From sequence record DRR378314_1707: DNA of 52,696 nucleotides; one strand, written 5' to 3'. A program made the translations under genes and the position numbers. Of this stretch, positions 24,478 through 46,734 are shown piece after piece. The notes beneath the pieces were generated by a model. The model made no database searches, had not been told where the DNA came from, and saw nothing but the letters and a program-made list of their open reading frames with translations. Every line of letters starts with the position of its first letter. The stretch's first letter is position 1.

Positions 24478-24482
24478 GAGCT

Positions 24483-25866: not shown

Positions 25867-25912
25867 AGGGCTTCTCCAGTTGTGGCAAAACACAGTAAAT
25901 TGGTCGCCTTGA

Positions 25913-26655: not shown

Positions 26656-26698
26656 ACTTGGTCAAGATATATTCAGTCAAAAAAATAGAGGTCTAGAG

Positions 26699-27268: not shown

Positions 27269-27294
27269 GATACAGAACGGCGAAGTCCAGATGG

Positions 27295-28948: not shown

Positions 28949-28978
28949 TTTCGCTCTCCTGTACGTTGTGAGGATCGT

Positions 28979-29272
28979 TCACAAGGTTTGTTCCTGATCA
29001 GCCGCCTGGGCTGCATGGCGCTGCAGGTAGTGGACGATATCCTGGGATTCGTACAGCCAGCGGACTTTTCCGTTTGATTCGATTCTCAGGCAGGGAACCT
29101 GCGCTCGACCGCCACCTTTGATCAACTCTGCTCGGTAGGCAGGGTTTCTGGCGATATCACGTTCGTCCACTTCGAGGTCGATGTGCTTTATCGCAGAGCG
29201 AGTGAATGCGCAAAAAGGGCATGAACGGTGGTGGTACAAAGAGAACGATGTGGGTTGCGAACTGACTGACAT
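28979..29272 (-). CDS. Glutaredoxin family protein
   Basis: SCPFC, GGRAQVPCLRI, WLYESQDI. Confidence 0.88.
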   Translation of the reverse strand: MSVSSQPTSFSLYHHRSCPFCAFTRSAIKHIDLEVDERDIARNPAYRAELIKGGGRAQVPCLRIESNGKVRWLYESQDIVHYLQRHAAQAADQEQTL

Positions 29273-30438: not shown

Positions 30439-33400
30439 GTGATGGCTGAACATCAAGAGCATCGCTCAACTGGGTTCGGCTTCTTTAAGGAGCTGATTCG
30501 TTATCGCTGGATCTCGCTGATTTTCGCATTGCTGGTTATTGGCGGGCTTGCCAGTCAGCTGGGGGAGCTGAGAAAGAACACACAGGCCGATGCTTTCATC
30601 GATGCTAACGAACCGGCTCTGGTGTACAGGCGCGTTGTTGAGGATATCTTCAACCTCAAAGACCCCCTGGTTATAGCGATACAGAACGAAGGGCCTCTCG
30701 GGATCTACAATCCGAAAAGCCTTGAACTGGTAAGCTGGCTTAGCGACCGCCTAATCTCTGTGCCGAACATAGATCCACAGGGCATAACCAGCTTAGCCAC
30801 TGAGTCCAATATTCAGGGCGACACCTATGGAATGGAGGTCCGGGAATTCCTGGATGGGCCGCTGGATGAAGGCCACATCGAGTGGATTAAAACGAGCATC
30901 GAGAGTTTCCCCCTCTACGAGGGAAGCCTCGTAGCTGGCGACGGTTCAATGACGTTAATCGTTGCTGAACTGTTGGACCAGGAAAAGGCGGAAACGACCT
31001 ATCAGGCTGTGATGCAGCTAATCAGTGAGGCACCAGCAGGGCGGAATGCCATCCATGTGGCAGGCGAGGGCGCCATCGCGGGGTACTTGTCTGAATACAT
31101 AGACAGCGATGCCAAGCGGCTGAACCCATTGGCTGGTTTCATAATCACGATTGTACTGATCGCTGCCTTTTTCACCGTTCGGGCCGCTATTATTCCCAAT
31201 CTGATTGTCGCCGGTACCGTGGGTGGAACTCTTGGTGCTATGGCAGTCGCTGGCGCTGAGTTCTATGTCATTACCAATGGCCTGATCGTCTGTATGATTG
31301 GAATTGCGGTCGCAGATTCTATCCATATTTTCTCAGAGTATTACGAAGCCCAAGCTGCCGACCCGACACTCTCTCAGGTTGATGCCATTGCCCTGGCAAT
31401 GGCGCGGATGTGGCGCCCGGTCTTTTTGACAACGCTGACAACAGCCGCGGGGTTTCTGGCGCTATACCCCACCAATGATATGCCGCCGCTTCAGTACTTT
31501 GGCATCTTCGGTGCCTTTGCGGTTGTGATTGCCGGCCTTCTTACGCTGTTCGTAACGCCGGCACTTTTATCCTTTTGCCGCGCTCGGCCCAGCCGTCTTT
31601 TCAGGCGCCATGGCATCGTTTCGTCTAAACCAAGCCTGGCGAGTGCACTTGGCTCCATACCGTTAAATCACCCGAGGAAGGTGCTTCTATCCGGGGCTCT
31701 GATTTCAGCACTGGCTGTCATCGGGGCGGGGAATGTGGTGGTCAATGAAGAACGAATTGAGAACTTTCAGCCACATGAACCCATCTACGTCGCTGACAAG
31801 CGGATCAATGCCTTGATGGATGGCACCTATTACCTTGATGTTGTAGTAGAGACCCCTGATGCGGAGGGCATCTACGATCCGTCCGTTCTGAGAGCCATCA
31901 GCGAATTACAGGGCTTTTTAGAACAGCAGCCGGAGATTCATGGAACCACTTCTATCGCTGATTACATCAAACAGATGTACAAGGCCGTCAATGAAGACGA
32001 TCCGGAATTCTACCGTTTGCCTGACGATAGAAATCTGATTGCACAGCTCTTTCTCCTCTATACAGCGTCCGGCGACCCGACAGATTTCGAGGAGCGCGTG
32101 GATTCCCGTCGAAAAACGGCCCTGGTGAGGGCTAACCTGAAAACAGGCTCATACCAGGTTAGCCGGTCTCTGATCCCAAGGTTGGAGAGTCACCTTGCTT
32201 CCAAGTTCGATGGCGAAGTGAGTGCGCAAATAAGTGGCCGGATCAATGTGGACTACCACTGGATTGATGGCATTGCTGAAACACACCTGAACAGCGTCAT
32301 CGTATCCTTCCTGGCGGTATTCGTGATGGCCGCACTGCTTTTCCGGTCAATTATCGGTGGCCTGATGGCGGCGATTCCGGTGGGCTTGTCCATTCTGGTG
32401 ATCTACGCCGTGATGGGCGTAAAGGGGATTTGGCTCGGCGTGGGAACGTCCATGTTTGCGGCTATCGCGATTGGGCTGAGCGTCGATTTTGCCATTCACA
32501 CGATTGATCGGCTCCGCCAAGCGATGTCCAGACCCGGAGATCTGAGTACCGCAGAACGCATCACCAGTGTTTTTGAATCTACCGGGCGGGCACTCTGGTT
32601 CAATCTCTTGGCGGTTGCACTCGGTTTTGGTGTTCTGATGACCAGCCAGGTTCCCCCATTGGTGAACTTTGGCATGTTGGTGGCTTTGTCTGTATCGGTC
32701 GCGTTTGTCGCCAGCCTGCTTTTGCTGCCCGCCTTTACTTTGGTTTTTCGACCAGGATTCATGGTGGGCGAGGGCGGCAGTTTATGGAAAACAGGAATGA
32801 TTCTACTAGCCGTTTTGGCAGCGGGTGCGATGACAAGCAAAGCGTTCGCTGACGAGAATCCTCCCACAGCGGATGAGATCGTCCAAAAGATGAACAACCG
32901 CCCTGAGGGTGTTGCGGTTCAGCGAGATATGGTCATTACCATGACTGATCGCCGAGATAACATCCGTGAGGAGCATACTCGAGCATTCCGGCGCTATTTC
33001 GGAGAAACCAAGAAGACGGTCATCTTCTACACCCAACCTGGAACCGTTGCAGGTACCGCATTCCTGACCTGGGACTACGCCGACCAGGAAAGAGACGATG
33101 ACCAGTGGCTTTATCTTCCCGCCTTGAGGAAGGTGCGCAGAATCTCGGCATCAGACCGCGGGGATTACTTTCTGGGCACAGACTTCACTTATGAAGAAAT
33201 CAAGAAAGAGAGCAAAATTGCCGCAGAAGACTACCAGTTTTCGCTGCTGGGAGAGGAGGATGTAGATGGCCACCACACATGGAAAGTTGAGGCAACTCCG
33301 ATAAAACCCGAGGTAAGCAGGGCTCTCGGATATGGACGAGTACTGCTGCGGATTGACTCCACACTGTCGATTCCACGGCTGACGGAATACTGGGATGTAA

Positions 33401-33591
33401 ACGGAAACTTTCTCAAAACGGTGCGTGCCCGAAGCATAGAAAACATTGACGGAATCTGGGCGATCACCGACATCGAGGCAACCAACCGAAAAACCGGCCA
33501 CAGTACCCGTATTCAGTTCGAGAACACCGATTACGAGGCCTCCGTTCCGCCCCGATTGTTCGAGCAAAACGCGTTGAAGCGGGGGTACTGA
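30439..33591 (+). CDS. MMPL/RND family transporter fused to a LolA-like lipoprotein-sorting domain
   Basis: Two MMPL repeats (GIAVADSIH, GLSVDFAIH); C-terminal DDDQWLYLPALRKVRRI...FLGTDFTYEE. Confidence 0.9.
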   Translation: MMAEHQEHRSTGFGFFKELIRYRWISLIFALLVIGGLASQLGELRKNTQADAFIDANEPALVYRRVVEDIFNLKDPLVIAIQNEGPLGIYNPKSLELVSWLSDRLISVPNIDPQGITSLATESNIQGDTYGMEVREFLDGPLDEGHIEWIKTSIESFPLYEGSLVAGDGSMTLIVAELLDQEKAETTYQAVMQLISEAPAGRNAIHVAGEGAIAGYLSEYIDSDAKRLNPLAGFIITIVLIAAFFTVRAAIIPNLIVAGTVGGTLGAMAVAGAEFYVITNGLIVCMIGIAVADSIHIFSEYYEAQAADPTLSQVDAIALAMARMWRPVFLTTLTTAAGFLALYPTNDMPPLQYFGIFGAFAVVIAGLLTLFVTPALLSFCRARPSRLFRRHGIVSSKPSLASALGSIPLNHPRKVLLSGALISALAVIGAGNVVVNEERIENFQPHEPIYVADKRINALMDGTYYLDVVVETPDAEGIYDPSVLRAISELQGFLEQQPEIHGTTSIADYIKQMYKAVNEDDPEFYRLPDDRNLIAQLFLLYTASGDPTDFEERVDSRRKTALVRANLKTGSYQVSRSLIPRLESHLASKFDGEVSAQISGRINVDYHWIDGIAETHLNSVIVSFLAVFVMAALLFRSIIGGLMAAIPVGLSILVIYAVMGVKGIWLGVGTSMFAAIAIGLSVDFAIHTIDRLRQAMSRPGDLSTAERITSVFESTGRALWFNLLAVALGFGVLMTSQVPPLVNFGMLVALSVSVAFVASLLLLPAFTLVFRPGFMVGEGGSLWKTGMILLAVLAAGAMTSKAFADENPPTADEIVQKMNNRPEGVAVQRDMVITMTDRRDNIREEHTRAFRRYFGETKKTVIFYTQPGTVAGTAFLTWDYADQERDDDQWLYLPALRKVRRISASDRGDYFLGTDFTYEEIKKESKIAAEDYQFSLLGEEDVDGHHTWKVEATPIKPEVSRALGYGRVLLRIDSTLSIPRLTEYWDVNGNFLKTVRARSIENIDGIWAITDIEATNRKTGHSTRIQFENTDYEASVPPRLFEQNALKRGY

Positions 33592-33592
33592 A

Positions 33593-34855
33593 ATGAAACT
33601 GGCTCAAACCACAGGTCCAGCGATAGCCCTGTCGCTGATTGTCACGCCCGTCGCGGCGATCGATGTTCAGCACTCCTCTCTTGTTGACGTTGAGGCGGCC
33701 TATGCTTACGAGACCGGGTCCTGGCAGAAACAGGAAATTGTGTGGCGACCGGAATGGGTGATGCGTTTTGTCTCAGGAACGCGCCTTACGCTTATTGGGG
33801 AAGGGCGTTTTGATGCAAAGGACGAACTGGACCCGGGCCGGCCAGACCAACCCTTTCGTGCACGGAACACCAGGAAAGGCTTTCCCAGTGATCATATTGA
33901 TCTGGAGCTAAGAGAGTTGTTCTGGGACCACTATGCTGGGGATACCTTTGTGCGTTTGGGGAAACAGCAGATTGTGTGGGGGCAGGCCGACGGCTTGCGA
34001 GTACTTGATGTCATCAACCCGCTGAGCTATCGGGAGTTCATTCTACCCGATATCGAACACCGTCGGATTCCGCTCTGGTCCGCACTCTTCGAGTTTCCGC
34101 TGGATACCTGGACGGCCCAGTTGGTGTGGGTTCCGGATGCCACGGTGACGGAAAGTACCTTGCCGGGAGCCACTTATTCATTGATTCCGGACTTTTATGG
34201 AGACGGGCGCCTGCAAGTAAATCGCCCTGAGTCACTGGAAGACAGCGATTTCGGGGCGAAGCTCTCGAGTTTCCAGAATGGCTGGGATCTATCGCTTAAT
34301 TACCTGTATCACACGATTGATGATCCACTGATTCGGATCGATACCTCTGAACAACGGGTCGTGGCGGACTATAACCGCTCGCACCTGATTGGCGGCACCG
34401 CGTCAAAACCGTTCGGGGATGTCACCTTTCGAAGCGAAGTCGGGGTGGAGAGCAAGAAACGCTTTCAGGATTCCGTGACCGGCCAAACAACAGGTACAGA
34501 GATCGGCTCTTACGTTATCGGCCTGGATTACAGTGGGTTGACGGACTGGTTTATCAGCTCACAGTTTTTCCAGACCTATCGTTTTACCAGCACCGGCGAA
34601 GACTCCCGTTCAAATGAGCAGATCACCTTGTTGATCAGGCACGAGGCAATGAATAACACGCTCAGGTTGGAGGCCCTGAGCATATACGACCTGGATAAGG
34701 AAGATTCACTGGTTCAACTGGAGGCCGAGTACACCGCATCCAGCAACGTGGTCCTGAGAGTGGGTGCCGACCTGTTTTTCGGGGATCGGTTTGGCACCTT
34801 TGGCCGGTTCCGCGAGGAGAGCCGCCTGGTTACCGGGTTTACCATGAGTTTCTGA
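33593..34855 (+). CDS. Outer membrane beta-barrel (DUF1302-like)
   Basis: Signal peptide; LRELF, RLGKQQIVWGQADGLRVLDVINP; C-terminal Phe. Confidence 0.85.
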   Translation: MKLAQTTGPAIALSLIVTPVAAIDVQHSSLVDVEAAYAYETGSWQKQEIVWRPEWVMRFVSGTRLTLIGEGRFDAKDELDPGRPDQPFRARNTRKGFPSDHIDLELRELFWDHYAGDTFVRLGKQQIVWGQADGLRVLDVINPLSYREFILPDIEHRRIPLWSALFEFPLDTWTAQLVWVPDATVTESTLPGATYSLIPDFYGDGRLQVNRPESLEDSDFGAKLSSFQNGWDLSLNYLYHTIDDPLIRIDTSEQRVVADYNRSHLIGGTASKPFGDVTFRSEVGVESKKRFQDSVTGQTTGTEIGSYVIGLDYSGLTDWFISSQFFQTYRFTSTGEDSRSNEQITLLIRHEAMNNTLRLEALSIYDLDKEDSLVQLEAEYTASSNVVLRVGADLFFGDRFGTFGRFREESRLVTGFTMSF

Positions 34856-34935
34856 AATGAAGGGATATTCCGAACTGCGGGGTTTGATAAAACGCACCGT
34901 CCCTGGTGCCAAGACGCAAATGAAACATCTATCAC

Positions 34936-35187
34936 TCAGCCATGGTTTTCGGGCTGTACTTGACCACGGATAACAATCTGACCGCTGTACGGAGCCGGTT
35001 CGGCAGTATCGTTCTTGGCGTCGTGATCCTGAATTTCACCGCGAATCACGATCTGGCCGCTGTAAGGAGCGGGCTGAGCCTGTTCGGAGCGGGGCTCATC
35101 AGATTTACGGTCTGCCAGGGTAGCGTTTGCGGGCAGGGCGGCGGCGGCAAAAAGTGAAGCCAGAGTGATCAGGACAAATTTACGCAT
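34936..35187 (-). CDS. Small secreted protein with duplicated PAPYSGQIVIRG motif (83 aa)
   Basis: GGAGA RBS; signal peptide MRKFVLITLASLFAAAALPANA; 25-aa period repeat with synonymous changes. Confidence 0.8.
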   Translation of the reverse strand: MRKFVLITLASLFAAAALPANATLADRKSDEPRSEQAQPAPYSGQIVIRGEIQDHDAKNDTAEPAPYSGQIVIRGQVQPENHG

Positions 35188-35285
35188 AACAGTTTCTCCA
35201 AAGTTTGATGAGTTAATGCTCATACCGGTGTCGCCAATCGACTCGGTATCAGATGGAGCGAATTATGGGACTGAAGAGTTGCAAC

Positions 35286-35328
35286 GAATAATTCCCAAAC
35301 GGTATGCAACACATCATTCTGGGTGATG
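35286..35328 (-). promoter_or_regulatory. Nod-box-like LysR element, copy A
   Basis: Minus strand CATCA-CCCAGAA-TGATG-TGTTGC-ATACCG-TTTGGG-AATTATTC. Confidence 0.75.
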
Positions 35329-35373
35329 CGAACCTGTAGATAGAGAGCAAAAGTGCACGTAAAACTACTTATT

Positions 35374-35416
35374 CATAAGCTTTGGTGATGTTTTGAATAC
35401 CGACGCTTAATTAGTC
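35374..35416 (+). promoter_or_regulatory. Nod-box-like LysR element, copy B
   Basis: CATAA-GCTTTGG-TGATG-TTTTGA-ATACCG-ACGCTT-AATTAGTC. Confidence 0.72.
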
Positions 35417-35478
35417 CTGAGTGCCAGTCAATCGAAAAATAGCAGCCAACTTTACCGACACACTTTTCGGAGTTGGCT

Positions 35479-36504
35479 ATGAAATTTCGTTTTTTGGCAC
35501 CTTTCCTTGCGGTCTCCGTATTGGCCAGTACAGTGCAGGCCGAGTCTTCAGACTCGGTAATGGCACTGTCTACGGATAACGATCTGTTTGCTCCAACGCA
35601 GACAGATCGGGATTACACCGCTGGCGTAGCCATTACCTATTCCTCCAATTCAGAGGAATTTATAAAAAACCCGGTTTCGAGCATAAGTCAGGGGCTGGAC
35701 GGGTATCTGCTGCCCTATCTGGGCGGACAGGTTGAAAAGCCGCTAAGCGCCGCACTTGAGTTTGGGGTTTATGGATTCACCCCCGAGGAAATCAAGGCGG
35801 CGGACATTGATCGGAGCGATCGTCCATACAGCAGTCTGGTCTACTTGTCGTCGAGCCAGAGCTATCAGGCCATGGGCGCAAAATCGGGTTGGACGACATC
35901 GATGACCGTTGGCGTACTGGGGTTGGATGTTTTCAAATCCGGCCAGAATGCAGTTCACAAGGTTGTCGGTAGCGACCGTGCAAACGGCTGGGGCCACCAG
36001 GTTTCAAATGGCGGAGAGCTGACTTTCCGGTATTCCGCTGCATACCATCAATACCTGGATGCCAGCCAGCCAAACCGCCAGTTTAAAGTGACGACTTTCG
36101 GGTCGGTCGGGTACCTGAGCGAGTTTGGGGCTGCCCTGGTTTTCAGGGATGGCCTGATTTCCTCGCCCGATAACCGCTTCAATCCCGAATTGATGGCCTA
36201 TGGTGAGCGGGCGCCAGGGGTGTCCGCACCGGGCGGCCGTGAGAATTACTTCTGGGGCGGATTGTCAGTTAAAGCCCGTGCCTATAACGCGTTCCTTCAG
36301 GGGCAGTTCAGGGAATCAGACCATGAACTGAATGCCAATGATCTGAATATCCTTCTGGCGGAGGTTTGGGCCGGTTATACACATAGTTTCCTGGCCGGTA
36401 CCGAATTGAGTTATGTACTGCGAGTGCAGAGCTCCGAGATTAAAAGTGGTACTGGGGACCGCACGCTTGCGTGGGGAGGGTTGGTATTCAGCAAACGTCT
36501 ATAA
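35479..36504 (+). CDS. LpxR/DUF2219 family outer membrane beta-barrel (lipid A deacylase-like)
   Basis: Signal peptide; DNDLF...DRDYTAG, FTP, DRPYS, QNAVH, GWGHQ, YNAFLQG. Confidence 0.85.
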   Translation: MKFRFLAPFLAVSVLASTVQAESSDSVMALSTDNDLFAPTQTDRDYTAGVAITYSSNSEEFIKNPVSSISQGLDGYLLPYLGGQVEKPLSAALEFGVYGFTPEEIKAADIDRSDRPYSSLVYLSSSQSYQAMGAKSGWTTSMTVGVLGLDVFKSGQNAVHKVVGSDRANGWGHQVSNGGELTFRYSAAYHQYLDASQPNRQFKVTTFGSVGYLSEFGAALVFRDGLISSPDNRFNPELMAYGERAPGVSAPGGRENYFWGGLSVKARAYNAFLQGQFRESDHELNANDLNILLAEVWAGYTHSFLAGTELSYVLRVQSSEIKSGTGDRTLAWGGLVFSKRL

Positions 36505-36524
36505 ACGGGAAGCCAAAACCTAAT

Positions 36525-36567
36525 CATCATCCTGGGAAATAGGATCTATATCGTCCCGCAATTAGTT
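36525..36567 (+). promoter_or_regulatory. Nod-box-like LysR element, copy C (degenerate)
   Basis: CATCA-TCCTGGG-AAATA-GGATCT-ATATCG-TCCCGC-AATTAGTT upstream of trxA. Confidence 0.55.
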
Positions 36568-36625
36568 TTTACGCTTCCAGAGCCTCACCATTGTAAGCAC
36601 GCACCATCGAGAAGGAAATTTTTTC

Positions 36626-36949
36626 ATGAGCCACATTATCAACGTTACAGATGCCAACTTTGAACAATCCGTGGTCCAGAGCGACCGGCCCGTATTGGTA
36701 GACTTCTGGGCCCCATGGTGTGGCCCCTGCAAGACTGTCGCACCAATGCTTGAGGAAATTGCCAGCGAGCTGGGTGATCAACTGACGATTGCTAAAGTCA
36801 ACGTAGACGACAGTCCGGATATTACAGCCAAGATGCGTATCCGGGGCATCCCGACCCTGGCTCTGTTTCACGAAGGCGGGGTGATTGCCCAGAAAACAGG
36901 CGCCGGCAGTTTGAGTGAACTGAAAGCCTTTGTTAAAGGCCATCTTTAG
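36626..36949 (+). CDS. trxA: Thioredoxin
   Basis: VLVDFWAPWCGPCK, IRGIPTL. Confidence 0.93.
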   Translation: MSHIINVTDANFEQSVVQSDRPVLVDFWAPWCGPCKTVAPMLEEIASELGDQLTIAKVNVDDSPDITAKMRIRGIPTLALFHEGGVIAQKTGAGSLSELKAFVKGHL

Positions 36950-36960
36950 CTTCAAACCCA

Positions 36961-36984
36961 AGCCTCCCCACCAGGAGGCTTTTT
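36961..36984 (+). terminator. Intrinsic terminator after trxA
   Basis: AGCCTCC-ccacca-GGAGGCT-TTTT. Confidence 0.75.
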
Positions 36985-37086
36985 CGTGCTAAACGCCATG
37001 AAAACCGAGCCTTTACGGAATACCGCAATTGCGGCTAAACGATTTGCCCGCCAGACTAAGGAAGGTCTCATTTCCAGGAAAGGCGA

Positions 37087-38073
37087 ATGAAAACGCAAGA
37101 ACTTCAGCTTTTGTACATCTTCGATGCCATCATGACTGAGCGTTCAGTTACCCGCGCCGCCGATCGACTCGACATGACCCAGCCGGCCGTCTCCAATGCC
37201 ATTTCCAGAATGCGCCAGATATGGAATGATCCGCTATTTGTGCGCAAAGGCAGGAACATCGAGCCAACCTCCTATGCCCTGAGTCTGTGGGACCAGGTTA
37301 ATGGCCATATGTTTGCTCTCACCAACGCAGTCAGCGCAACACAGTTCGAGCCCGGATCCTCGAAGCGAAAGTTTCGAATTGCGGTAACGGATGTCATTGT
37401 GGAGATGATCTGGCGTCAGCTGATTGAACTTCTCGAGCGTGAGGCACCGGGCGTAGACGTACACGCTGTTCCCTACACGCCGGAGGGAACTTACGACGAT
37501 TTACGGGAAGCCCATGTTGATCTGGCTGTGGGTATGCTGAATCAACACGACCACAGTCTCCGAAGCACCTGGTTGTTCGAAGGTGGCTATGTGCTGGCGA
37601 TGCGCGCGGACCACCCGCTTGCGGGCCGGCCAATCACAATGGATGAATTTCTCAGCGCTCGGCACCTGCTTGTGACGATGTCCGGTGACGCTCATGGCTT
37701 TGTAGACGGCTATCTGGACCAGAAGGGACAGAGCAGGCGCATTGCTGCCACCGTCAACCATTTCTCGATTGTTCCCCAAGTGCTCAGAGATTCCAACCTG
37801 ATAGCAGCGGTTCCCGAATTGATCAGTCAGGATTGTGGCTTTGTAGACGGACTCTGGATGGGGCAGCTTCCATTTGAAGTGGACCCGACCAGCCTGTATC
37901 TCATATGGCATACCCGGCATGATCGGGATCCTGGGATTGTCTGGCTCCGGGATCATGTGGAGCGGCTTCTTCGGGAACGCTGGCATGACATCATGACCAA
38001 CTCTCCGTGCGGCCACATGGCCCCAAAGCGATCGAGTAGGTCAGTAGAAGCATCAAATCATCACTTTCTGTGA
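37087..38073 (+). CDS. LysR family regulator (NodD/LeuO-like), paralog of 15917..16915
   Basis: ELQLLYIF...SVTRAADRLDMTQPAVSN; WHTRHDRDPG. Confidence 0.93.
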   Translation: MKTQELQLLYIFDAIMTERSVTRAADRLDMTQPAVSNAISRMRQIWNDPLFVRKGRNIEPTSYALSLWDQVNGHMFALTNAVSATQFEPGSSKRKFRIAVTDVIVEMIWRQLIELLEREAPGVDVHAVPYTPEGTYDDLREAHVDLAVGMLNQHDHSLRSTWLFEGGYVLAMRADHPLAGRPITMDEFLSARHLLVTMSGDAHGFVDGYLDQKGQSRRIAATVNHFSIVPQVLRDSNLIAAVPELISQDCGFVDGLWMGQLPFEVDPTSLYLIWHTRHDRDPGIVWLRDHVERLLRERWHDIMTNSPCGHMAPKRSSRSVEASNHHFL

Positions 38074-38101
38074 TGATAAAGATACCGCAACGGAATTATT
38101 C
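38059..38101 (+). promoter_or_regulatory. Nod-box-like LysR element, copy D (overlaps lysR stop)
   Basis: CATCA-CTTTCTG-TGATG-ATAAAG-ATACCG-CAACGG-AATTATTC. Confidence 0.75.
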
Positions 38102-38212
38102 AATCCCACCGAAACTCTCAATAATTCCCTCCAGATGACGTTTTTCGCGGCATCGGCGAGAAGTCCGCTCGACAGTTGAACATGTCGGGAGCCTTGCCTT
38201 GAACGTCTGCAT

Positions 38213-38992
38213 ATGAAGCTATGGGAGGGAATAATGAACGGTCAATCGAACTGCCCGTCGATAGGTACCGGTTTGGAGTTGGCTGCAACTGGCAACGCAG
38301 CAGGCCAGAAATGGTACAAGCCTATTTTGTCCGTAGATACAGACGTAAACGGTGATAAGCATGTGTATAAGGCTTTTCGTTTTTCCCATGGGCTGTTGGG
38401 AAAGTATTTCAGGTTCCTTGCCTCCCACGAATTCAAAATGCTGAAAAAAGTAGAGCACCTCGAGTTCACGCCCGGTCAGATCCACCGTGGGTCTTATGCT
38501 GTGCCTACCATCAACTACCGTTTGATCGAAGGTACGTCGATCAAAAAAATCGCAACGAAAGATCTGCTGCCGGAAAAATTCTTCCTACGGCTCTTCAACG
38601 ATGTGAAAACATTGCACCAGCATGGTGTTGTGCATATGGACCTTGGCAACTCCGGGAACATTCTGGTTTCCAGGGAAGGTCATCCTGTAATCATCGACTT
38701 TGGCTCTGCGGTGCCCTCAAGCTGGTTGCCTTCCGTGGTACAGGGTTGGGCCCGACGCAAGGATATCCTCGGCGTTCTAAAGCTTTGGTATCGTTTTGAT
38801 AAAGCGTCTATGCCCACGATACTGGTGGAGTATTTCCAGAAACACTATCGCAAGAATATATACACGCCCAAACGGTTTTTTAAGGCGGTGCGCAAGTGGA
38901 TGGTGGGGGATGGGAGCTTAGAAGACCTCTCCGGTCTAACCACCGTGGTGAGTGTGTTCGTGGGGCTTCTGGTACTGGTGTCTTTAACCTGA
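38213..38992 (+). CDS. Protein kinase-like superfamily enzyme (RIO/Kdo-WaaP-like) with C-terminal membrane anchor
   Basis: HGVVHMDLGNSGNILV and IIDFG; C-terminal VVSVFVGLLVLVSLT; start may be 38234. Confidence 0.8.
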   Translation: MKLWEGIMNGQSNCPSIGTGLELAATGNAAGQKWYKPILSVDTDVNGDKHVYKAFRFSHGLLGKYFRFLASHEFKMLKKVEHLEFTPGQIHRGSYAVPTINYRLIEGTSIKKIATKDLLPEKFFLRLFNDVKTLHQHGVVHMDLGNSGNILVSREGHPVIIDFGSAVPSSWLPSVVQGWARRKDILGVLKLWYRFDKASMPTILVEYFQKHYRKNIYTPKRFFKAVRKWMVGDGSLEDLSGLTTVVSVFVGLLVLVSLT

Positions 38993-39060
38993 GGAAGTAT
39001 TGGCGTTCCACTTAAGGCAAGAAATGCAGAAACGAATTTATGTGGGAAAAAGTTTTAATC

Positions 39061-39093
39061 AAAAAAAGGGCGGTCCCGGTGACCGCCCTTTTT
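39061..39093. terminator. Bidirectional intrinsic terminator
   Basis: AAAAAAAGGGCGGTC-ccggt-GACCGCCCTTTTT. Confidence 0.85.
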
Positions 39094-39106
39094 CATTTGG
39101 GGCATC

Positions 39107-39250
39107 TTAGTTGCTGATACCCAGTTCGACCGTTTCAATTGCGGGGTTGTTGCCACGCTCGATATCGTCCAGGCTAACACCTTCCGCTTGTGCGAATGCA
39201 GAGAAAGCGATTACAGAGAAAACGAGAAAGAACTTGTTGATTGCGTTCAT
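39107..39250 (-). CDS. Small secreted protein, 47 aa (not in ORF track)
   Basis: MNAINKFFLVFSVIAFSAFAQA-EGVSLDDIERGNNPAIETVELGISN*; AAGGTGGA RBS; terminator directly after. Confidence 0.75.
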   Translation of the reverse strand: MNAINKFFLVFSVIAFSAFAQAEGVSLDDIERGNNPAIETVELGISN

Positions 39251-39335
39251 TTGATATTCCACCTTTTAAGAGAATTAAGTTAAACAACGTCGCCTGATTG
39301 GCTTGATGGTTATTCTCTTGGTTTACCGCCTTTAG

Positions 39336-39378
39336 AAAAAATTGCTTTGCGGTATACAACACATCAAATGAAATGATG
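39336..39378 (-). promoter_or_regulatory. Nod-box-like LysR element, copy E
   Basis: Minus strand CATCA-TTTCATT-TGATG-TGTTGT-ATACCG-CAAAGC-AATTTTTT. Confidence 0.75.
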
Positions 39379-39409
39379 GGTTCGGACAAACGCGCCCAAT
39401 CTCGTCAAC

Positions 39410-39510
39410 CAGGCTTTCAATGTTGCCGTCAGCACCAATATGCAAAAAGTAGACGTCGTACGATCCGTCGGCGTTCTTCTTGACTCCGCTGTCCAGCATG
39501 GCGTGCGAGT
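39410..39510 (-). pseudogene. Fused gene relics: phzF-like fragment and DUF1214-like fragment
   Basis: 39410-39446 matches 39603-39639 at 31/37 nt (LHIGADGNIESL vs LHIGANGKIESL); adjacent LDSGVKKNADGSYDVYF resembles a DUF1214 motif. Confidence 0.6.
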
Positions 39511-39551
39511 AGTCAGAGCCCGGATGTATTAAACAACGTCTCTCAGAATCG

Positions 39552-40472
39552 TCAGAATTCAACTTCCGCTGTTTTTTTGAGGGCTCCCCGCCCCCCAGCA
39601 AACAGACTTTCGATCTTACCGTTAGCGCCAATATGCAAACGCACATTGATAAGGCTAGGTGAGGGCGGTGACATCCAGCGCCCTTGCTCAAGCACAAACG
39701 CCTGTTTATCGAGGCCGACATGCTCCCGCAGGTAACACGCCAACGGGCCGGCCGCCATGCCCGTTGCGGATTCTTCCTGAATGCCATACCGGGGCGCGAA
39801 CATACGGGCTCCTGCATCTCGTCCATCTGCAACACCATCGAAGGAAAATACATAAAGCCCGATCAGATCCAGAGCGTCACTGAGCTCTTCAATCAACGCA
39901 AAATCTGGCTCGAGACCCTGGATCAGACCAGCCTCGCGAATACCGACGACGACAAAACTGTTGCCCGTATTCACCAGTGTCGGCCTTGTACCGGCAATGA
40001 GATCGGCGCTGTTTATCCCGAGCGATCGTAGCACCAACCGATGATCGTCATCAGTGAGCGGCTCATAACGGGGCGCTTTTTGCTCCATATACGCTGACTC
40101 ACGCTCCATTTTGATGGATCTGCATCCATCAATGGTCTCTTTGGATGACTCATCGCTTGTCAGCAGGCCGTTCTGACTCAGGTAGCTGAATGTCGCGATC
40201 GTCGCATGACCGCAGTGAGCGATCTGCTGAGTGGGCGTAAAGAATTCCAGTTTTATGTCTGCAAGATCAGACGCAGACACAAACGCCGTTTCCGACAAGC
40301 CGACGGCTGCGGCGATCCTCTGTTTTTGTTCAGAGCTAAACCGGTCGGCATCCAACACAACGCCTGCCGGGTTGCCGCCGGAATCGCCGTCAACAAAAGC
40401 ACTCACAATCGGGACTTCAATTTTCATGGCCGGTGCTCGAGCACCTTTGATAGCAATCGCATCGAGTGACAT
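39552..40472 (-). CDS. PhzF family isomerase/epimerase
   Basis: VSAF...GGNPAGVV, LSETAFV, FFTP...CGHATIA, RMFAPRYGIQEESATG. Confidence 0.92.
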   Translation of the reverse strand: MSLDAIAIKGARAPAMKIEVPIVSAFVDGDSGGNPAGVVLDADRFSSEQKQRIAAAVGLSETAFVSASDLADIKLEFFTPTQQIAHCGHATIATFSYLSQNGLLTSDESSKETIDGCRSIKMERESAYMEQKAPRYEPLTDDDHRLVLRSLGINSADLIAGTRPTLVNTGNSFVVVGIREAGLIQGLEPDFALIEELSDALDLIGLYVFSFDGVADGRDAGARMFAPRYGIQEESATGMAAGPLACYLREHVGLDKQAFVLEQGRWMSPPSPSLINVRLHIGANGKIESLFAGGRGALKKTAEVEF

Positions 40473-40588
40473 TTGATGTTCCTCTAGTGGTTGGTGTCCT
40501 TTCATTCTTCCAACGTTCCGCACCTGGAACAAACGGATAAAATTCGTCTATGCTTAATTAAAACTTAACTATAGGCAGAATAGAGCCC

Positions 40589-41473
40589 GTGCAAAAACTA
40601 CCTCCATTAAGGGCATTACAGGCATTTCGGTACGCTGCCAGAGAGTTAAGCTTCAAGTCGGCAGCTGAGGCCTTGAACATTTCTCAGGCAGCCGTCAGCA
40701 GCCACATTCGTGGCCTGGAAGATTTTCTGGGGTTGAAGCTTTTTGTGCGCCTGACTCGTGAAGTGAGATTGACGCATGAAGGCAGGGCGCTTTCGGGGTA
40801 TGTGGAAGCAGGCTTCCAGGAGTTGGAAAGGGGTGTAGCGCGGTTTGCGCCAAACTCCGATTCCGGGCGCCTGACTGTGGCAACGGTGCCATCATTTGCC
40901 AGTCGCTGGCTTGTACCCAGAATTGATTCGTTTCAGAAAGCTCACCCTGAGATCCAGCTAAGCCTTCAACCCAATCTGCAGTTGGTTGGTTTTCAGGGTG
41001 ATGGCGTGGATCTCGCGATACGGTATGGCAGCGGTAATTATCCTGGGCTCGAGTCCAGGCTACTGCTCGAAGAAAAACTGCTGCCGGTGTGTCACAGCAT
41101 GCTTACTGATAGTGAACCTGTGACGCCTGAGAGTCTGGTAAAACTTCCGTGGCTTATCGATGAATCAATCGACATGGACAGCTCGTGGAGGGCGTTTCAG
41201 GAAGAACTCGGCATTGAAATACCTGACAGTTCCATAACACTTCGAGTGACCGAGGGAGCGACACTTGTCGAGGCTGTGCTTGCCGGCAGAGGTATTGCGT
41301 TGATGCGATACAGCCTTGTTGCCGATCTCCTTAAAGCTGGCTTGCTTCAGAGCCCGATCGAAATTTCGGTCCCGGCAGAATACCAATACTACCTGGTTGC
41401 ACCAGAAGCGAAATTCCGAACGGACAAGGTTCGCGCGTTTGTTTCGTGGATTATGGGCGAAGTAGGTTCTTAA
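40589..41473 (+). CDS. LysR family regulator (GcvA-like)
   Basis: LPPLRALQAF...SFKSAAEALNISQAAVS; PSFASRWLVPR. Confidence 0.93.
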   Translation: MQKLPPLRALQAFRYAARELSFKSAAEALNISQAAVSSHIRGLEDFLGLKLFVRLTREVRLTHEGRALSGYVEAGFQELERGVARFAPNSDSGRLTVATVPSFASRWLVPRIDSFQKAHPEIQLSLQPNLQLVGFQGDGVDLAIRYGSGNYPGLESRLLLEEKLLPVCHSMLTDSEPVTPESLVKLPWLIDESIDMDSSWRAFQEELGIEIPDSSITLRVTEGATLVEAVLAGRGIALMRYSLVADLLKAGLLQSPIEISVPAEYQYYLVAPEAKFRTDKVRAFVSWIMGEVGS

Positions 41474-41961
41474 TCACTCAAACTCATTTTGGCCAACTGG
41501 AATGGGAGCAATTTTCTTTCATTATCCAGCGATAGAACTTCGAGCTCATGAAAGAGGCTTTCATTGAGATACTCGTATGTCCACAGATAATCAAACCCGT
41601 GTCTTTGCGCCTCATACCGATCAGATAAAAATATGACATTTGAAATCTTTGCCATACGAATTGTCATGTAGCAGAGCGCGCACGGCTCTCCTGACGCAAT
41701 GAGTGTGGTGCCCGCAAGGCCGACGCTTTTTATGTTCCGGGAAGCCTCCCTGATAGCCTGGATTTCAGCATGAGCAGTGCAGTCTAAATGATTGGCGACC
41801 TGATTGACCCCCCTGCCAATAATTTCACCACTTTGATCGACGATAACCGCAGAGAAGGGCGGGCTACCTTTCACAACATTACTGATAGCCAGTTCAAGAG
41901 CGCTGTTTGCGCACGCCATGAGGCGTGCTTCAGCAATAGAATTACACATCAGTGAATTCAT
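41470..41961 (-). CDS. Nucleoside/guanine deaminase (CDA superfamily)
   Basis: PFSAVIV, TAHAEIQAIR, EPCALC zinc motif. Confidence 0.88.
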   Translation of the reverse strand: MNSLMCNSIAEARLMACANSALELAISNVVKGSPPFSAVIVDQSGEIIGRGVNQVANHLDCTAHAEIQAIREASRNIKSVGLAGTTLIASGEPCALCYMTIRMAKISNVIFLSDRYEAQRHGFDYLWTYEYLNESLFHELEVLSLDNERKLLPFQLAKMSLSD

Positions 41962-42646
41962 GATTCGATGAGGAAGCTAGGTTCGCAGAGCATAGTTCGA
42001 ATGCGATACTCTCGGCTCGGCCCTTTGCTTCCGCGACAGACATCCGATGCCTCTCGTCCCCAAATTCCTGGTACTCGGCAGCAATCTCGTAGACTGTGTC
42101 TACGCCAAGATACTTGCTCAGCGTGCGCAGGTGCGGTGCCAGGTGACCAGCATCCTCTCTTATTCCACCCTTTTCAAAGCCGAACTCTCCACTGGAAGTG
42201 ACTATGATCAGAGTTTTACCTGAGAGCAGGGGCTGCAAGGGGAAGTCTCCTCGCGAGAGATCAAAATCAAACGTTTTGTCTATGCGCACGATTTGATCGA
42301 ACCAGGCCTTCAGGTGAGCGGGCATGCCATAGTTATACATTGGTGAGGAAATCAGGATAACGTCGGCTTTGGTCACTTCCGCTATAAGCGTGTCCGAAAG
42401 CGCGAGTTCTTCTCTCTGCGCCGGAGTCCGCTTTTCCTCAGGGGTGAACACCGCGCCAATCCAGTCCTGTGTAATAAAATCAGGTGGATTCACCCCAACG
42501 TCACGATAGATATAGTCATCCTCGGGCCGATTCTGTTGCCAGGTTTCAATAAAGCGACGAGCGATGTTCTTCGATATGGAATCGTGATCCGGGTTCGGGT
42601 TGTTTGCGGCTCTAACGCTTGAGTCGATGTGTAATAGAGTGCTCAT
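41942..42646 (-). CDS. FMN-dependent NADH-azoreductase
   Basis: LLHIDSS, SPMYNYGMPAHLKAWFDQIVR; GAGGGA before ATG 42646. Confidence 0.9.
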   Translation of the reverse strand: MSTLLHIDSSVRAANNPNPDHDSISKNIARRFIETWQQNRPEDDYIYRDVGVNPPDFITQDWIGAVFTPEEKRTPAQREELALSDTLIAEVTKADVILISSPMYNYGMPAHLKAWFDQIVRIDKTFDFDLSRGDFPLQPLLSGKTLIIVTSSGEFGFEKGGIREDAGHLAPHLRTLSKYLGVDTVYEIAAEYQEFGDERHRMSVAEAKGRAESIAFELCSANLASSSNHEFTDV

Positions 42647-42785
42647 TTTGCTTCCCTCGGTTGGTGAATAACAGGGGGTATTTTGTGAGCCTATTGGGAC
42701 TGCGACAAACGAAAAGAATGCACTTACAGATGAGTTAAAATCATCTAGAATAATCTTACCCTCGTTGTAGATTCGGAGATTACGT

Positions 42786-43637
42786 GTGCAGGTATCGTTA
42801 CAGGCACTAAAAGCCTTTGAGGCGGCTGCCCGCCTGGGAAGCTTTAAATTGGCTGCAGAGGAGCTCTCGCTGACGCCGACCGCTATTTCACACCACATTG
42901 CCAACCTGGAAGGTCGGCTTAATGTAAGTCTGTTTCATAGGCAGGGGAGACGGATATCGATCACCGGAACAGGTTCAAGATTGGCAAAAGCCACCTCCGA
43001 AGGATTTCAGACAATTGACAGTGCTCTGGAAGAGGTGATGGAGGCTGGCAGTGCCGTCAGGGTGACAACAACATCATCCTTGGCGGCCATGGTGCTGATC
43101 CCTTCCCAGCATGAGTTTGAGCAAGCCAACCCGGATATTTCTGTCGAAATTTCGACAAGCGAGTCTGTCGAAAACCAGCCCTACATTATTCCGATCCGGC
43201 TCGGCGATGCCTTGACTGTTCAGAAAGCTGATGTCGTCAAATCCGAGTCGTTCAATGTGTTTGGCGCGTATGGCAAGGCGCCGCCCGCGTGGGCAAATGA
43301 GACCATTACCGTGTTTACAACCGAGTGGAAAAATAGATCGCTACCGGATCCTCCATTCGGCGCCTGGTTGAAAAAAAATGGACTGGGTGGGGCCGATATA
43401 AGACTCAAAAAGTTTGATCAAGAGATATTCGGAATCCAGCAGGCAATGGCGGAAAACGGACTGGTGTTTTGTTCGACAACGCTGACTGCAAGGTTGTCAA
43501 AGTCCAAACTTCTACACCAGTTTGAAACTCAGCCGGTAGAGTCAAACCTTTGCTATTACGTACCAAACAAGAACAGCTTTGAGACCCGCGGTGCGGTCAG
43601 GTTTCTGAAGTGGATGGAAGATACTTTGAACCAGTAG
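42786..43637 (+). CDS. LysR family regulator
   Basis: LKAFEAAARLGSFKLAAEELSLTPTAISH; divergent from azoreductase. Confidence 0.9.
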   Translation: MQVSLQALKAFEAAARLGSFKLAAEELSLTPTAISHHIANLEGRLNVSLFHRQGRRISITGTGSRLAKATSEGFQTIDSALEEVMEAGSAVRVTTTSSLAAMVLIPSQHEFEQANPDISVEISTSESVENQPYIIPIRLGDALTVQKADVVKSESFNVFGAYGKAPPAWANETITVFTTEWKNRSLPDPPFGAWLKKNGLGGADIRLKKFDQEIFGIQQAMAENGLVFCSTTLTARLSKSKLLHQFETQPVESNLCYYVPNKNSFETRGAVRFLKWMEDTLNQ

Positions 43638-43754
43638 TTCGTACGTAAACTTCTTAATTCGGCGTCAAGATCATTGAAGAGACCTTCCCGTAACATTCTG
43701 GCCGCCCTGATCGTCAAAGTAATGACTATCGTTGATTAAGTTCGGGAGGGCGCC

Positions 43755-44099
43755 ATGACCGGTTTAACTCAGGTATCGCAGGGAAACTATATACCGACAC
43801 AAGGAATGAAGGAGCTTTTGCGGCGGTGGTTTTATCTGAAATTCGTCCAGAAAAAGAGCACCGTTGAATTGATGGCCACAGCCTGCGATCTTCGCAATAA
43901 AAGCGCGTTGAGTATTGTGGCGATGCTGGACGTTGATGAGCAGATGATCTCTCAAGTGGTGGGTAAGAAAAGGCTCATTTTTGTTCAGAACTGCCACGCG
44001 TACCTGAAGGGCTCAGTAAAGCCTGCGGGGTTGGATTCCGGCTTTTTGAACGACTCATATCTGAATCAAAAAAATCCGCTGATCAACCACCAAATGTGA
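43755..44099 (+). CDS. Hypothetical protein
   Basis: GGGAGGG RBS before ATG; fills intergenic gap; no recognised motif. Confidence 0.4.
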   Translation: MTGLTQVSQGNYIPTQGMKELLRRWFYLKFVQKKSTVELMATACDLRNKSALSIVAMLDVDEQMISQVVGKKRLIFVQNCHAYLKGSVKPAGLDSGFLNDSYLNQKNPLINHQM

Positions 44100-44164
44100 C
44101 TCTGCAAACCGCACATATTTTATGAACTGTGAGGACGGGAGTTTGCCACTATTCGCACGATTTT

Positions 44165-45220
44165 CTACGATATTTTTACTAGGTAGGTCGGCAAAGAAGG
44201 TTCTGGAATAACGGACAAGGACTTCATCCTTTCAAGGGTCCTGATCTCTGCATTCAAAAGATGGTTATGAAGATGCTCCGATGCATCGGAGTGTTTCCCA
44301 GAGATCAGCGATTCAATAACGGCAAGGTGCTCCCGTATGCCAGGATTTTCAACTGACGCTTTCACGGCGTCGCTGAACACTAGACCTACCACCAAGGGTG
44401 TCAAACTTTGATTGATAAACTTGGCGATCTTTTTATTCGGGTTGAATGAGTGGCATCGCTGATGTAGGTCAACTTCAATCGTCTCCAAAAGCCTCTGATT
44501 TTTGCCCTCTGGGCTTTGAGTAAGTGCTTCCTGAAGGCGAAGTTTCATCTGCTGAAGGAGTTCAATCGGAATTAATGGTCCACAGGTTGTCAGGGAGTAA
44601 GGCTCTAACAGCCTTCTTGTTTCATAATCCTGTTTTACATCCCGAGCCGTGAGCGGCCCTGTAATCCAGTGCCCGGTAATGTCTTTTCCTACAAGCCCTT
44701 CGTCCATCAGTTTGCCGAGAATTTCCCTCGAGATCGTTCTGCTGACTCCAAAATGCTGAGAATGCTTTTCAGAGCGGATCCTGAATTGACCAAACGTCAT
44801 AGCGATTGAGGTGGATCTTTTAGTTGCTCTGTAGACATCGTCAATAATATTTGACTCTGAGCGAGCGTTGTCCTGGGCTCTGTCGTCCAAACCAAGCGTG
44901 TCTGGACGAATATCCTCCCTCAGGATGATGTCGGAGTTGTCGGTTTTGTAGCCTCTGCCTTCGAACTTAAACAGCTTGCCTTCTTCATGCAACTCGGCCA
45001 GGGCACGCCTTACCGGGGCTCGACTTGTGTTGAAGATCTCAGCGATTGGTCTCTCGAGAATAACCTGTCCTTCCGGAAAAGCGCCCCTTTCAAGCGCCGC
45101 CTCCAGTGCGTCCTTGATGACCTCAAAATTCGGTTTTTTCCCACTAGCCCTTTGTTTTGCCAATGCCTTTTTCCTCCCGAAACGCTTGTCGGAGCATAGC
45201 GACTTTGCACTGTAATGCAA
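44165..45220 (-). CDS. GntR family regulator with two wHTH-like regions and an FCD domain
   Basis: ERPIAEIFNTSRAPVRRAL; HFGVSRTISREIL; EHLAVIESL; start uncertain. Confidence 0.85.
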   Translation of the reverse strand: MHYSAKSLCSDKRFGRKKALAKQRASGKKPNFEVIKDALEAALERGAFPEGQVILERPIAEIFNTSRAPVRRALAELHEEGKLFKFEGRGYKTDNSDIILREDIRPDTLGLDDRAQDNARSESNIIDDVYRATKRSTSIAMTFGQFRIRSEKHSQHFGVSRTISREILGKLMDEGLVGKDITGHWITGPLTARDVKQDYETRRLLEPYSLTTCGPLIPIELLQQMKLRLQEALTQSPEGKNQRLLETIEVDLHQRCHSFNPNKKIAKFINQSLTPLVVGLVFSDAVKASVENPGIREHLAVIESLISGKHSDASEHLHNHLLNAEIRTLERMKSLSVIPEPSLPTYLVKIS

Positions 45221-45321
45221 ATTGGACCTAACAGAGATACGTTAATCACAAATAGGTATTGCATCCAATAGTCATTTTAAGCTACCTTTCAAAAATAGAA
45301 CAATACCTGGAAGGCACTGTG

Positions 45322-46734
45322 ATGAGAATTTGCGAAATTCTTCGTGAGGGGTCCCTGAAAAGTCTAATCGAGACTCTTGGCCTTGATATGAGGTCTGGGC
45401 GGTTAAGTCCAGTCGATGTTCTTAGGGAAACCCGGTTTAAACAGGGGTATTCCAAAAACCAGGGAATCCTGGTGAAACCTTTGGGAGAGGCCGCTTTTGC
45501 ACACGCCCGCTCTAGTGAGAAACGGTACCTAAATGACGAACAGTTTGGTTTGCTCGATGGCATTCCATTCGGAGTAAAAGATCTCATTGATGTAGAAGGG
45601 TGCACTACCTCCCGAGGCTCTCTTATTTACAGGAATGCGCCGCCAGCGAAGAGAAATGCTGAGGCCGTTGAGAGACTTGGTTTTCAGGGAATGGTGTTCG
45701 GCGGGAAGACAAATCTGTCCGAGTTGGCGTTTTCAGGAATTGGGACAAACGACTTATTTGGCACTCCCATTAATCCGAGAGCAACTACCGGGAAGTACAT
45801 CACGGGTGGTTCGTCCTCGGGAAGTGCCGCAGGTGTCGCCTCAGGACTCTGGCCCGTGGCACTGGGTACGGATACCTCGGGATCGTCCCGGATCCCCGCT
45901 GCGTTTTGTGGTGTCGTCGGATTCAAGCCGTCTTTCGATAGATACCCTTTGAGGGGAGTGGCCCCTCTGGCCCCCTCCCTGGATCATTTGGGCATCAATT
46001 CCCTAACCGTGCAGGACTGCATCATTCTGGATCAGGCCCTGAGAGGTCTGGCCCCCATACCGAAAGTTCGAATGCTCTCCGAGCAAACCGAGTTTCTGGT
46101 GCCACGGAATAAATCGATCCAACCACGTGATCCGCACATCAAAGACAATTTCGATAAAACCCTGGACCTGTTGTCCAACCTTGGGTTCGAGATTCACGAA
46201 GTTGATTTTTCACCCTATGCCGAAGTTGACCGGCTCTTCGAAATACATGGAAGCCTGGTCGCCCATGAGGCCGCCCAGCAGTACGACGCATTATTTGAGA
46301 ATGGACTGACTTCACATATCGACCCGAAGATTTTGCAGAGACTGAAAGAGGGAACGTTACTCAATCGGAAGAGCTATGCACTCTTGCAGAAGATAAGAAG
46401 AAACCTGCGAGCGGAGCTGTCTTCCAGCATTGGTAACAAGATCCTTCTCCAACCGACAGTAAAAATACTACCGCCTGCTATTGAATCGGTGCTACAGGGC
46501 GTCGAGGAATTCAAGGCGTTCAACAAACTCATCCTCGGCAACACGATGTACGCGAATTACCTTGGGATGCCAGCGATAGCCATTCCAAATGGCCACGCCC
46601 CCAATGGGTTTTCGACGTCTATCCAGCTGTCAGCAGCGTCCGGCAAGGACGATTTCCTTCTCAAGACTGCGCTGTTTCTGGAGGCAGCGCTATCAAAACA
46701 AAACATTTACACACCAGACACAGTGTCTCATTGA
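45322..46734 (+). CDS. Amidase-signature family enzyme
   Basis: [32 protein letters not shown]. Confidence 0.92.

Follow-up and report, generated by a model that had tools for sequence, protein, structure and literature searches.

Why should five genes that look unlinked, encoding a secreted repeat protein, an LpxR-like barrel, a thioredoxin, a membrane-anchored kinase and a small secreted peptide, each be preceded by a copy of one and the same element? The question is raised by positions 35286–39378 of a 52,696-nucleotide stretch of DNA from record DRR378314_1707; by "the window" we mean this entire stretch. The original prediction, made from the letters of the window, described the element as a 43-bp nod-box-like motif, CATCA-N7-TGATG-N6-ATACCG-N6-AATT, and proposed that its five copies define the regulon of a LysR-type regulator. 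That the five elements define a local regulon of LysR-type operator-promoters, each oriented with its gene, is a reading that we consider well supported by the comparisons described here. We further propose, with a probability of roughly 0.7, that they are five activator-dependent sigma-70 promoters of about 67 bp, which would be switched together by the LysR-type regulator encoded at 37087–38073, in the middle of the cluster.

A pattern scan of the window located four copies with no more than one mismatch, at 35290–35328 (−), 35374–35412 (+), 38059–38097 (+) and 39340–39378 (−). When up to three mismatches were allowed there were four matches, compared with 0.00 expected, and none of 100 dinucleotide-preserving shuffles contained any. 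The fifth copy, which precedes trxA (36525–36563, +), departs from the pattern at 4 of its 20 specified bases. A profile of the box, built from 110 unique sites, recovered all five copies in the window at E ≤ 5e-10 (5e-10 for the trxA copy), and the sixth-best place scored E = 0.18. Counted from motif position 39, the start codon follows after 103 nt for the 83-residue (83-aa) repeat protein, 67 nt for the LpxR-like barrel, 63 nt for trxA, 116 nt for the kinase and 90 nt for the 47-aa peptide. Thus, pattern, shuffles, profile and start distances all confirm five elements of fixed spacing that face separate genes, in the orientation and at the distances first described (about 60–130 nt). The part of the description that had to be revised is the length. 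The copies and their spacing are real, but the element does not end at 43 bp; it spans 67 bp, from the dyad through a −10-like hexamer.

The window derives from Marinobacter; Marinobacter sp. NFXS11 and EhC06 have lysR genes that show 92% identity to the one encoded here. With the regulator as query, a scan of species-representative genomes yielded 45 related loci. Together with the window these loci contain 120 sites at up to four mismatches, whereas about 0.4 would be expected by chance if equal base frequencies are assumed. In as many as 109 of the 120 cases the site precedes a gene orthologous to one of the five, with the same orientation and at near-constant spacing (repeat protein, 34; trxA, 25; LpxR-like gene, 22; kinase, 16; peptide, 12). 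The motif is thus kept upstream of orthologues across the related loci. Within orthologous groups it is the half-sites that are retained, and the N7 spacer and the upstream flank vary. The weaker trxA dyad, in which AAATA replaces TGATG, is itself conserved and therefore represents a variant rather than decay.

The anatomy of the box can be read from the same 110 unique sites. The dyad, C-ATC-A-N7-T-GAT-G, satisfies both T-N11-A and ATC-N9-GAT, with T3 near-invariant and A15 invariant. Situated 22 bp downstream of it is a second T-N11-A block, ATAC-N7-nAAT, in which T25 and A37 are invariant; the complete list of invariant motif positions is 5, 15, 16, 24, 25, 37, 38 and 39. Motif positions 62–67 hold a −10-like hexamer in all five window copies (Table 1) and conform to nAnnnT in 106 of the 110 unique sites, compared with at most 13 at each of the other offsets between 45 and 73. 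The sequence 17 bases upstream of the hexamer is T-ATTC or T-AGTC and provides no usable −35. As expected from this lack of a −35, a generic sigma-70 scan detected none of the five box promoters. An alternative sigma factor or a sigma-54 promoter was rejected by eye, as the conserved hexamers are of the sigma-70 type, and Rfam matched no family within positions 34000–40000 of the window.

With a transcription start placed 7 nt downstream of the hexamer by assumption, the dyad would be centred on −65 and the second conserved block on −43. A review on LysR-type transcriptional regulators (LTTRs) describes a highly symmetric T-N11-A regulatory site at about −65 and a looser activation site 2 that adjoins the −35 box. 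Provided that the hexamer is the −10, the geometry of the box promoters would fit this classical layout of a LysR activator. The idea that an ATC-N9-GAT dyad followed by a weaker site constitutes a LysR-type operator-promoter is supported by both the positional conservation and the fixed −10-like hexamer.

What kind of regulator could read such a box? The closest relative of the mid-cluster regulator in PDB is 1utb (E = 3e-53, 184 bits, residues 5–300), and the regulatory domains of MexT and LeuO are also among its PDB matches. Its domains and these matches support an assignment to the NahR/DntR/LeuO/NodD-like branch of LysR proteins, in agreement with the NodD/LeuO-like label given to it at the outset. 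It reached none of the curated NCBIfam cutoffs; for example, it scored 177.8 bits against a cutoff of 262 for LeuO (NF007063) and 171.6 bits against 480 for BsrA (NF050187). All 50 aligned homologues, which range from 44 to 100% identity, have the recognition-helix segment TQPAVSN..SRMR without change. In the same homologues Cys 250 and Cys 308 are either both present (37 of 50) or both absent (13), and never does one of them occur alone. This pattern tracks clade boundaries; one of the two cysteines is also found in 1utb, and both are found in a paralogous regulator encoded at 15917–16915.

The profile search detected no box in the upstream region of lysR itself. That region, including its 12-bp perfect palindrome, is kept in most of 12 aligned orthologous regions and is plausibly a sigma-70 promoter, and the palindrome may be an autoregulatory or some other operator. 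The palindrome region has the sequence ATACCGCAA in common with the second site in the boxes before the kinase and peptide genes. In some species hardly any sequence separates trxA from lysR, and the two may be co-transcribed.

We next consider how tightly the box is coupled to the regulator across genomes. A pattern scan of five Marinobacter genomes gave 19 matches, of which 15 fell inside LysR loci and the remaining four were three-mismatch sites; a reversed-pattern control gave a single match. The profile placed all 23 of its hits at E ≤ 1 in the same five genomes inside LysR loci, having scored 150 of the 429–539 first-look candidates. A wider sample comprised 121 genomes from the family of genome G001, with 41 candidates scored per genome, a box called at E ≤ 1e-3 and a regulator homologue at E ≤ 1e-80. 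Box and regulator occurred together in 26 of these genomes, the box alone in none, the regulator alone in 8 and neither in 87 (Fisher p = 9e-20, uncorrected for phylogeny). Of 80 box hits, 55 were located within 5 kb of a regulator homologue, 11 at 5–20 kb, 3 at greater distances and 11 on contigs that lack a homologue.

For LTTRs, a regulator gene that is adjacent to its target, and often divergent from it, is the canonical arrangement. In the window the regulator gene adjoins the box targets. For seven distant homologues (44–71% identity), the box is located in the divergent intergenic region, 39–100 nt from the regulator start; there it precedes trxA in genomes G244, G250 and G255, and the adaptor gene of a resistance-nodulation-division (RND) system in G258, G231, G237 and G229.

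Taken together, the box and its regulator suggest the following mechanism. The symmetric dyad, with its centre some 65 bp upstream of the predicted start, would anchor a tetramer of the mid-cluster regulator. The same tetramer would touch the weaker T-N11-A site near −43, next to the non-consensus −35 (T-ATTC/AGTC). Upon an inducing signal, the regulator would bring RNA polymerase to the fixed −10, and the secreted tandem-repeat protein, the LpxR-like barrel, thioredoxin, the membrane-anchored RIO-like kinase and the 47-aa peptide would be induced together.

Several considerations weigh against this account. Activation rather than repression, the binding itself, the signal and the identity of the acting paralogue are all inferred from a purely computational analysis, and the signal in particular is read from gene content. 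The positions −65 and −43 depend on a predicted −10. Orthologous sites share ancestry and cannot be counted as independent observations. The genome searches scored a fraction of their first-look candidates, so weak dispersed sites may have been missed. As the upstream region of lysR has no box, autoregulation through the box is not evident in the window. Moreover, in a Marinobacter metagenome-assembled genome (L045, 5001–5141, corresponding to G265:C170) only the last 47 codons of the mid-cluster lysR are left, with all five boxes and the target genes intact, which means that another regulator can suffice to maintain the boxes.

The last case leads directly to the question of whether the mid-cluster regulator is the one that acts. 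The boxes might instead be read mainly or only by the paralogue at 15917–16915, or by both paralogues with cross-talk, as their similarity (57% identity and nearly the same recognition helix) would allow. The truncated locus agrees with this, for there the five boxes persist and a paralogue with 59% identity is encoded 17–20 kb away. However, all 15 sampled genomes with an orthologue at least 79% identical to the mid-cluster regulator have boxes, whereas G294, whose sole homologue at E ≤ 1e-80 is 58% identical and thus in the range of the paralogue, has no box at E ≤ 1e-3. In addition, the profile search of the window found no box beside the paralogue, and the homologue near the 55 boxes within 5 kb is mostly the close one. 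We therefore regard a reading of the boxes by the paralogue, alone or with cross-talk, as rather unlikely, but as an alternative to be taken seriously. The original prediction had spoken of two LysR regulators without specifying the second. The GcvA-type LysR at 40589–41473 has no link to the box, and it is the paralogue that makes the relevant second regulator.

It is also conceivable that the dyad is the operator of a transcription factor of another family and that its linkage to lysR is mere synteny. A 17-bp palindrome could suit other dimeric factors, and MarR, HxlR, TetR, AraC, GntR and ECF sigma regulators are all encoded in the window. None of them, however, accompanies the box in related loci, and none of the 121 genomes has a box without the LysR clade. 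Two T-N11-A sites placed 22 bp apart, predicted to lie at −65 and −43, likewise point to a LysR protein, as does the fact that the box keeps its place in divergent lysR–target intergenic regions despite changes in gene order. This makes a factor of another family improbable. The crowding of five copies into 4.1 kb, with one back-to-back pair, might also suggest a dispersed repeat or a duplicated promoter cassette without any common regulator. Yet conservation is limited to functional positions while spacers and flanks differ among copies and species, the copies stand at a fixed distance from five unrelated genes across related loci, and neither terminal repeats nor mobile-element genes were observed, so that a repeat or cassette origin is scarcely credible. 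Activation by the mid-cluster regulator is thus the interpretation that we retain below.

The features of the locus are collected in Table 1.

Table 1. Coordinates of the regulators, predicted box promoters, genes and terminators in the window (aa, residues; starts are predictions)
Feature	Position	Strand	Details
Paralogous LysR-type regulator, candidate co-regulator	15917–16915	+	57% identical to mid-cluster regulator; near-identical recognition helix
83-aa protein	34936–35187	−	Sec-type signal peptide; two ~14-residue repeats (internal repeat 13/14 identical)
Predicted promoter, 83-aa secreted repeat protein	35262–35328	−	49.5 bits, E 1.3e-14; kept before 34 orthologous genes
Sub-sites, 83-aa gene promoter	dyad 35312–35328; second site 35290–35305; CATAAT 35262–35267; start ~35255	−	From alignment
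Predicted promoter, LpxR-like gene	35374–35440	+	46.2 bits; kept before 22 orthologues
Sub-sites, LpxR-like gene promoter	dyad 35374–35390; second site 35397–35412; AAAAAT 35435–35440; start near 35447	+	First half of dyad is CATAA
LpxR-family outer-membrane beta-barrel	35479–36504	+	PF09982 E 1.5e-38, 133 bits vs cutoff 26
Predicted promoter, trxA	36525–36591	+	34.9 bits, E 5e-10; same variant kept before 25 trxA orthologues
Sub-sites, trxA promoter	second site 36548–36563; CACCAT 36586–36591; start near 36598	+	Weaker dyad CATCA-N7-AAATA
Thioredoxin	36626–36949	+	PF00085 1.1e-32; TIGR01068 116.1 bits vs cutoff 96.8
Hairpin and U-run after trxA (putative intrinsic terminator)	36960–36985	+	−14.3 kcal/mol, z −3.8; 0/200 shuffles as stable
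lysR upstream region	37023–37057	+	Palindrome CCGCAATTGCGG 37023–37034, overlaps −35-like TTGCGG; 17 nt; −10-like CAGACT 37052–37057
LysR-type regulator, proposed activator	37087–38073	+	HTH_1 and LysR_substrate
Predicted promoter, kinase gene	38059–38125	+	44.8 bits; kept before 16 kinase genes
Sub-sites, kinase promoter	dyad 38059–38075; second site 38082–38097; AATAAT 38120–38125; start near 38132	+	Dyad overlaps last lysR codons
RIO1-like small protein kinase	38213–38992	+	C-terminal hydrophobic anchor; Pkinase 9e-07, RIO1 5e-06; RIO1-type clusters in Atlas
Putative bidirectional terminator between convergent kinase and peptide genes	39063–39098		Minus strand −23 kcal/mol, z −4.1; same stem on plus
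47-aa precursor	39107–39250	−	Signal peptide and ~25-residue mature peptide; 12 loci, 85–94% identity
Predicted promoter, 47-aa peptide gene	39312–39378	−	43.8 bits; from motif position 39 to start codon exactly 90 nt, 12/12 orthologues
Sub-sites, peptide promoter	dyad 39362–39378; second site 39340–39355; GAGAAT 39312–39317; start near 39305	−	

Pfam and NCBIfam confirmed the identities first given to the LpxR-like barrel, trxA, the LysR regulator and the kinase, and neither database has a family for the 83-aa repeat protein or the 47-aa peptide. The LpxR-like barrel had no PDB sequence match at E ≤ 0.01, and its lipid A deacylase activity is thus only putative. The kinase translation shows the H-x-D, N and DFG motifs. 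Its open reading frame has in-frame ATG codons at 38213 and 38234, and a Shine-Dalgarno-like GGGAGGG precedes only the latter. The likely start is therefore 38234, that is, 137 nt after motif position 39. Because terminators follow trxA and separate the kinase and peptide genes, at least these appear to be separate single-gene units.

Does the gene content behind the box hint at the signal? Across the loci, thioredoxin is the most widely shared box target. In relatives, 8 of the 9 other sites examined have an HlyD-type/membrane-fusion lipoprotein at the head of an RND operon behind the box (confirmed with Pfam for one), and in three loci (L023, L025 and L031) the box-driven HlyD-type adaptor gene comes directly after the regulator. 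The box also precedes an Old-Yellow-Enzyme (Oxidored_FMN) reductase in L058 and L077, confirmed with Pfam for L058, as well as other small signal-peptide proteins, some of which have the same PYSGxxV repeat as the window protein. In genome G313, three paralogous box-driven genes (L083, L084 and L085) encode Q/E/A-rich signal-peptide proteins of 68–76 residues. These are unrelated to the small proteins of the window, which indicates that the small exported proteins brought under the box differ from lineage to lineage.

Since thioredoxin is a target, efflux adaptors and Old-Yellow-Enzyme reductases are targets in relatives, and redox and detoxification genes are neighbours, the signal is most likely a thiol, electrophile or xenobiotic stress similar to that of MexT, a regulator that is reportedly redox-responsive and linked to disulfide stress. 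This proposal, drawn by analogy, is tentative, with odds well short of even. An envelope or signalling role of the module, as originally suggested, may be envisaged. A more specific and doubtful idea is that the regulator is a thiol-switch LysR, operated by Cys 250 and Cys 308, that induces its own reductant thioredoxin in a feedback loop and has been wired in Marinobacter to an envelope output consisting of the LpxR-like barrel, the membrane-anchored kinase and the two secreted peptides. It comes from the both-or-none pattern of the cysteine pair and from the position of thioredoxin as the divergent partner in distant relatives. If true, outer-membrane remodelling or peptide signalling would respond to redox or electrophile stress.

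The remainder of the window contains several further gene groups. Upstream, at 30439–34855, a 1050-aa MMPL/RND-like transporter fused to a C-terminal LolA-like domain (also DUF1329) is followed by a DUF1302 protein; these genes are convergent with the repeat-protein gene and have no box. The paralogous LysR gene is flanked by genes for a MarR regulator (15268–15810, −) and an AraC-cupin regulator (16984–17859, −). Both 12125–29000 and 39552–46734 are dense in redox/detoxification genes and regulators. They include a LysR and glutathione S-transferase pair, HxlR, PNPOx-like, YHS and DUF2282 proteins, a TrxC-like thioredoxin (20931–21371), an ECF sigma factor and TetR, together with a pyridine-nucleotide disulfide oxidoreductase, a PhzF-like protein with the divergent GcvA-type LysR, a flavodoxin-like reductase, a deaminase, GntR and an amidase.

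How does this regulon relate to known systems? Titles and abstracts of the literature on Marinobacter in combination with MexT, LysR, thioredoxin or LpxR gave no account of it. The label of candidate new system nevertheless proved too strong, because the MexT nod-box regulon described for P. aeruginosa is similar in architecture and, in part, in gene content. According to that study (Tian et al. 2009, PMC2794183), the MexT box contains ATC-N9-GAT, which is the nod box, and a conserved AT 7 nt further on, with one box per promoter. The same text lists as MexT targets mexEF-oprN, a xenB-containing operon and six exported proteins of 70–130 residues, two of them with tandem repeats, and in the MexT RND efflux operon it places the adaptor gene after the regulator gene. 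Here, too, we find a LysR regulator, a box with ATC-N9-GAT and AT at +8/+9, and separate promoters with one box each. An RND pump and a xenobiotic reductase are shared as well, both in relatives rather than in the window, as are small exported proteins, represented in the window by the 83-aa repeat protein and the 47-aa peptide.

The differences from the MexT regulon are equally clear. The box genes are tightly clustered here, whereas those of MexT are dispersed. They include a thioredoxin, an LpxR-like barrel and a RIO-like kinase, none of which is named as a MexT target in the examined text of PMC2794183, where the words "thioredoxin" and "kinase" do not occur. The regulator matched the MexT regulatory domain (6l33) with 61.6 bits (E = 7e-16), compared with 118 bits for 2y7w, a chain that holds the regulatory domain only of the best PDB relative. 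Judged by sequence, the regulator is not a MexT orthologue and is closer to the PDB entries 1utb, 2uye and 5ae4, which we take to be DntR, a NahR-type regulator. The MexT box itself, ATCA-N5-GTCGAT-N4-ACYAT, had no match at up to two mismatches in the window and no exact match in 89 loci. Homology of the 83-aa protein to pseudomonad MexT-box repeat proteins was considered and rejected: among three such box-driven proteins compared with it, the best match had E = 0.43 and was confined to the signal peptide. When the order was searched with the 83-aa protein, 3 of 201 genomes gave matches at E ≤ 0.01, including the reference genome. The MexT box was found in 2 of 39 genomes in the family of a Pseudomonas marincola genome and in 9 of 401 genomes order-wide, the latter being the source of the three proteins compared. 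The distance to the −10 at pseudomonad MexT-box promoters, counted by eye, was inconsistent across four loci and was not used. The parallel to MexT is thus close in kind and does not amount to orthology.

Other members of the LysR family offer further points of comparison. With NodD and the nod box the present system shares the ATC-N9-GAT dyad, the weaker second site about two helical turns past it and the use of one regulator for several promoters. Here, however, the second site is ATA-N9-AAT rather than ATC-N9-GAT and the downstream genes are unrelated to nodulation; among the 25 of 46 matched NCBIfam families listed there is no NodD model. Regulators of the NahR/DntR type are the closest solved relatives, with a similar recognition helix (TQPAVSN) and the classical mechanism based on a regulatory site and an activation site. 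Such regulators act on aromatic-catabolic operons and have salicylate-type ligands as their signals; unlike them, the regulator described here has no catabolic operon attached. OxyR, with its thioredoxin/glutaredoxin feedback, is likewise a LysR regulator with four half-sites and a disulfide reductase as target, and the cysteine pair co-conserved here adds to the likeness. However, the similarity to OxyR is weak (E of about 1e-6) and its box is different; OxyR-like redox switching of the regulator is pure conjecture.

What do these comparisons add? An uncharacterised LysR subfamily of marine gammaproteobacteria gains a precise putative operator, a promoter anatomy and a compact target list. 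A single switch would link thioredoxin to four proteins that have had no role assigned, namely the repeat protein, the 47-aa peptide, the RIO-like kinase and the LpxR-like barrel. No new kind of regulation is implied; the comparison rather suggests that a MexT-type response, consisting of efflux plus small exported proteins, is wider than Pseudomonas. On sequence grounds, the regulon probably belongs with the nod-box regulons of the NodD/MexT/NahR type, and it carries the LpxR-like barrel, the RIO-like kinase and the 47-aa peptide as unusual cargo.

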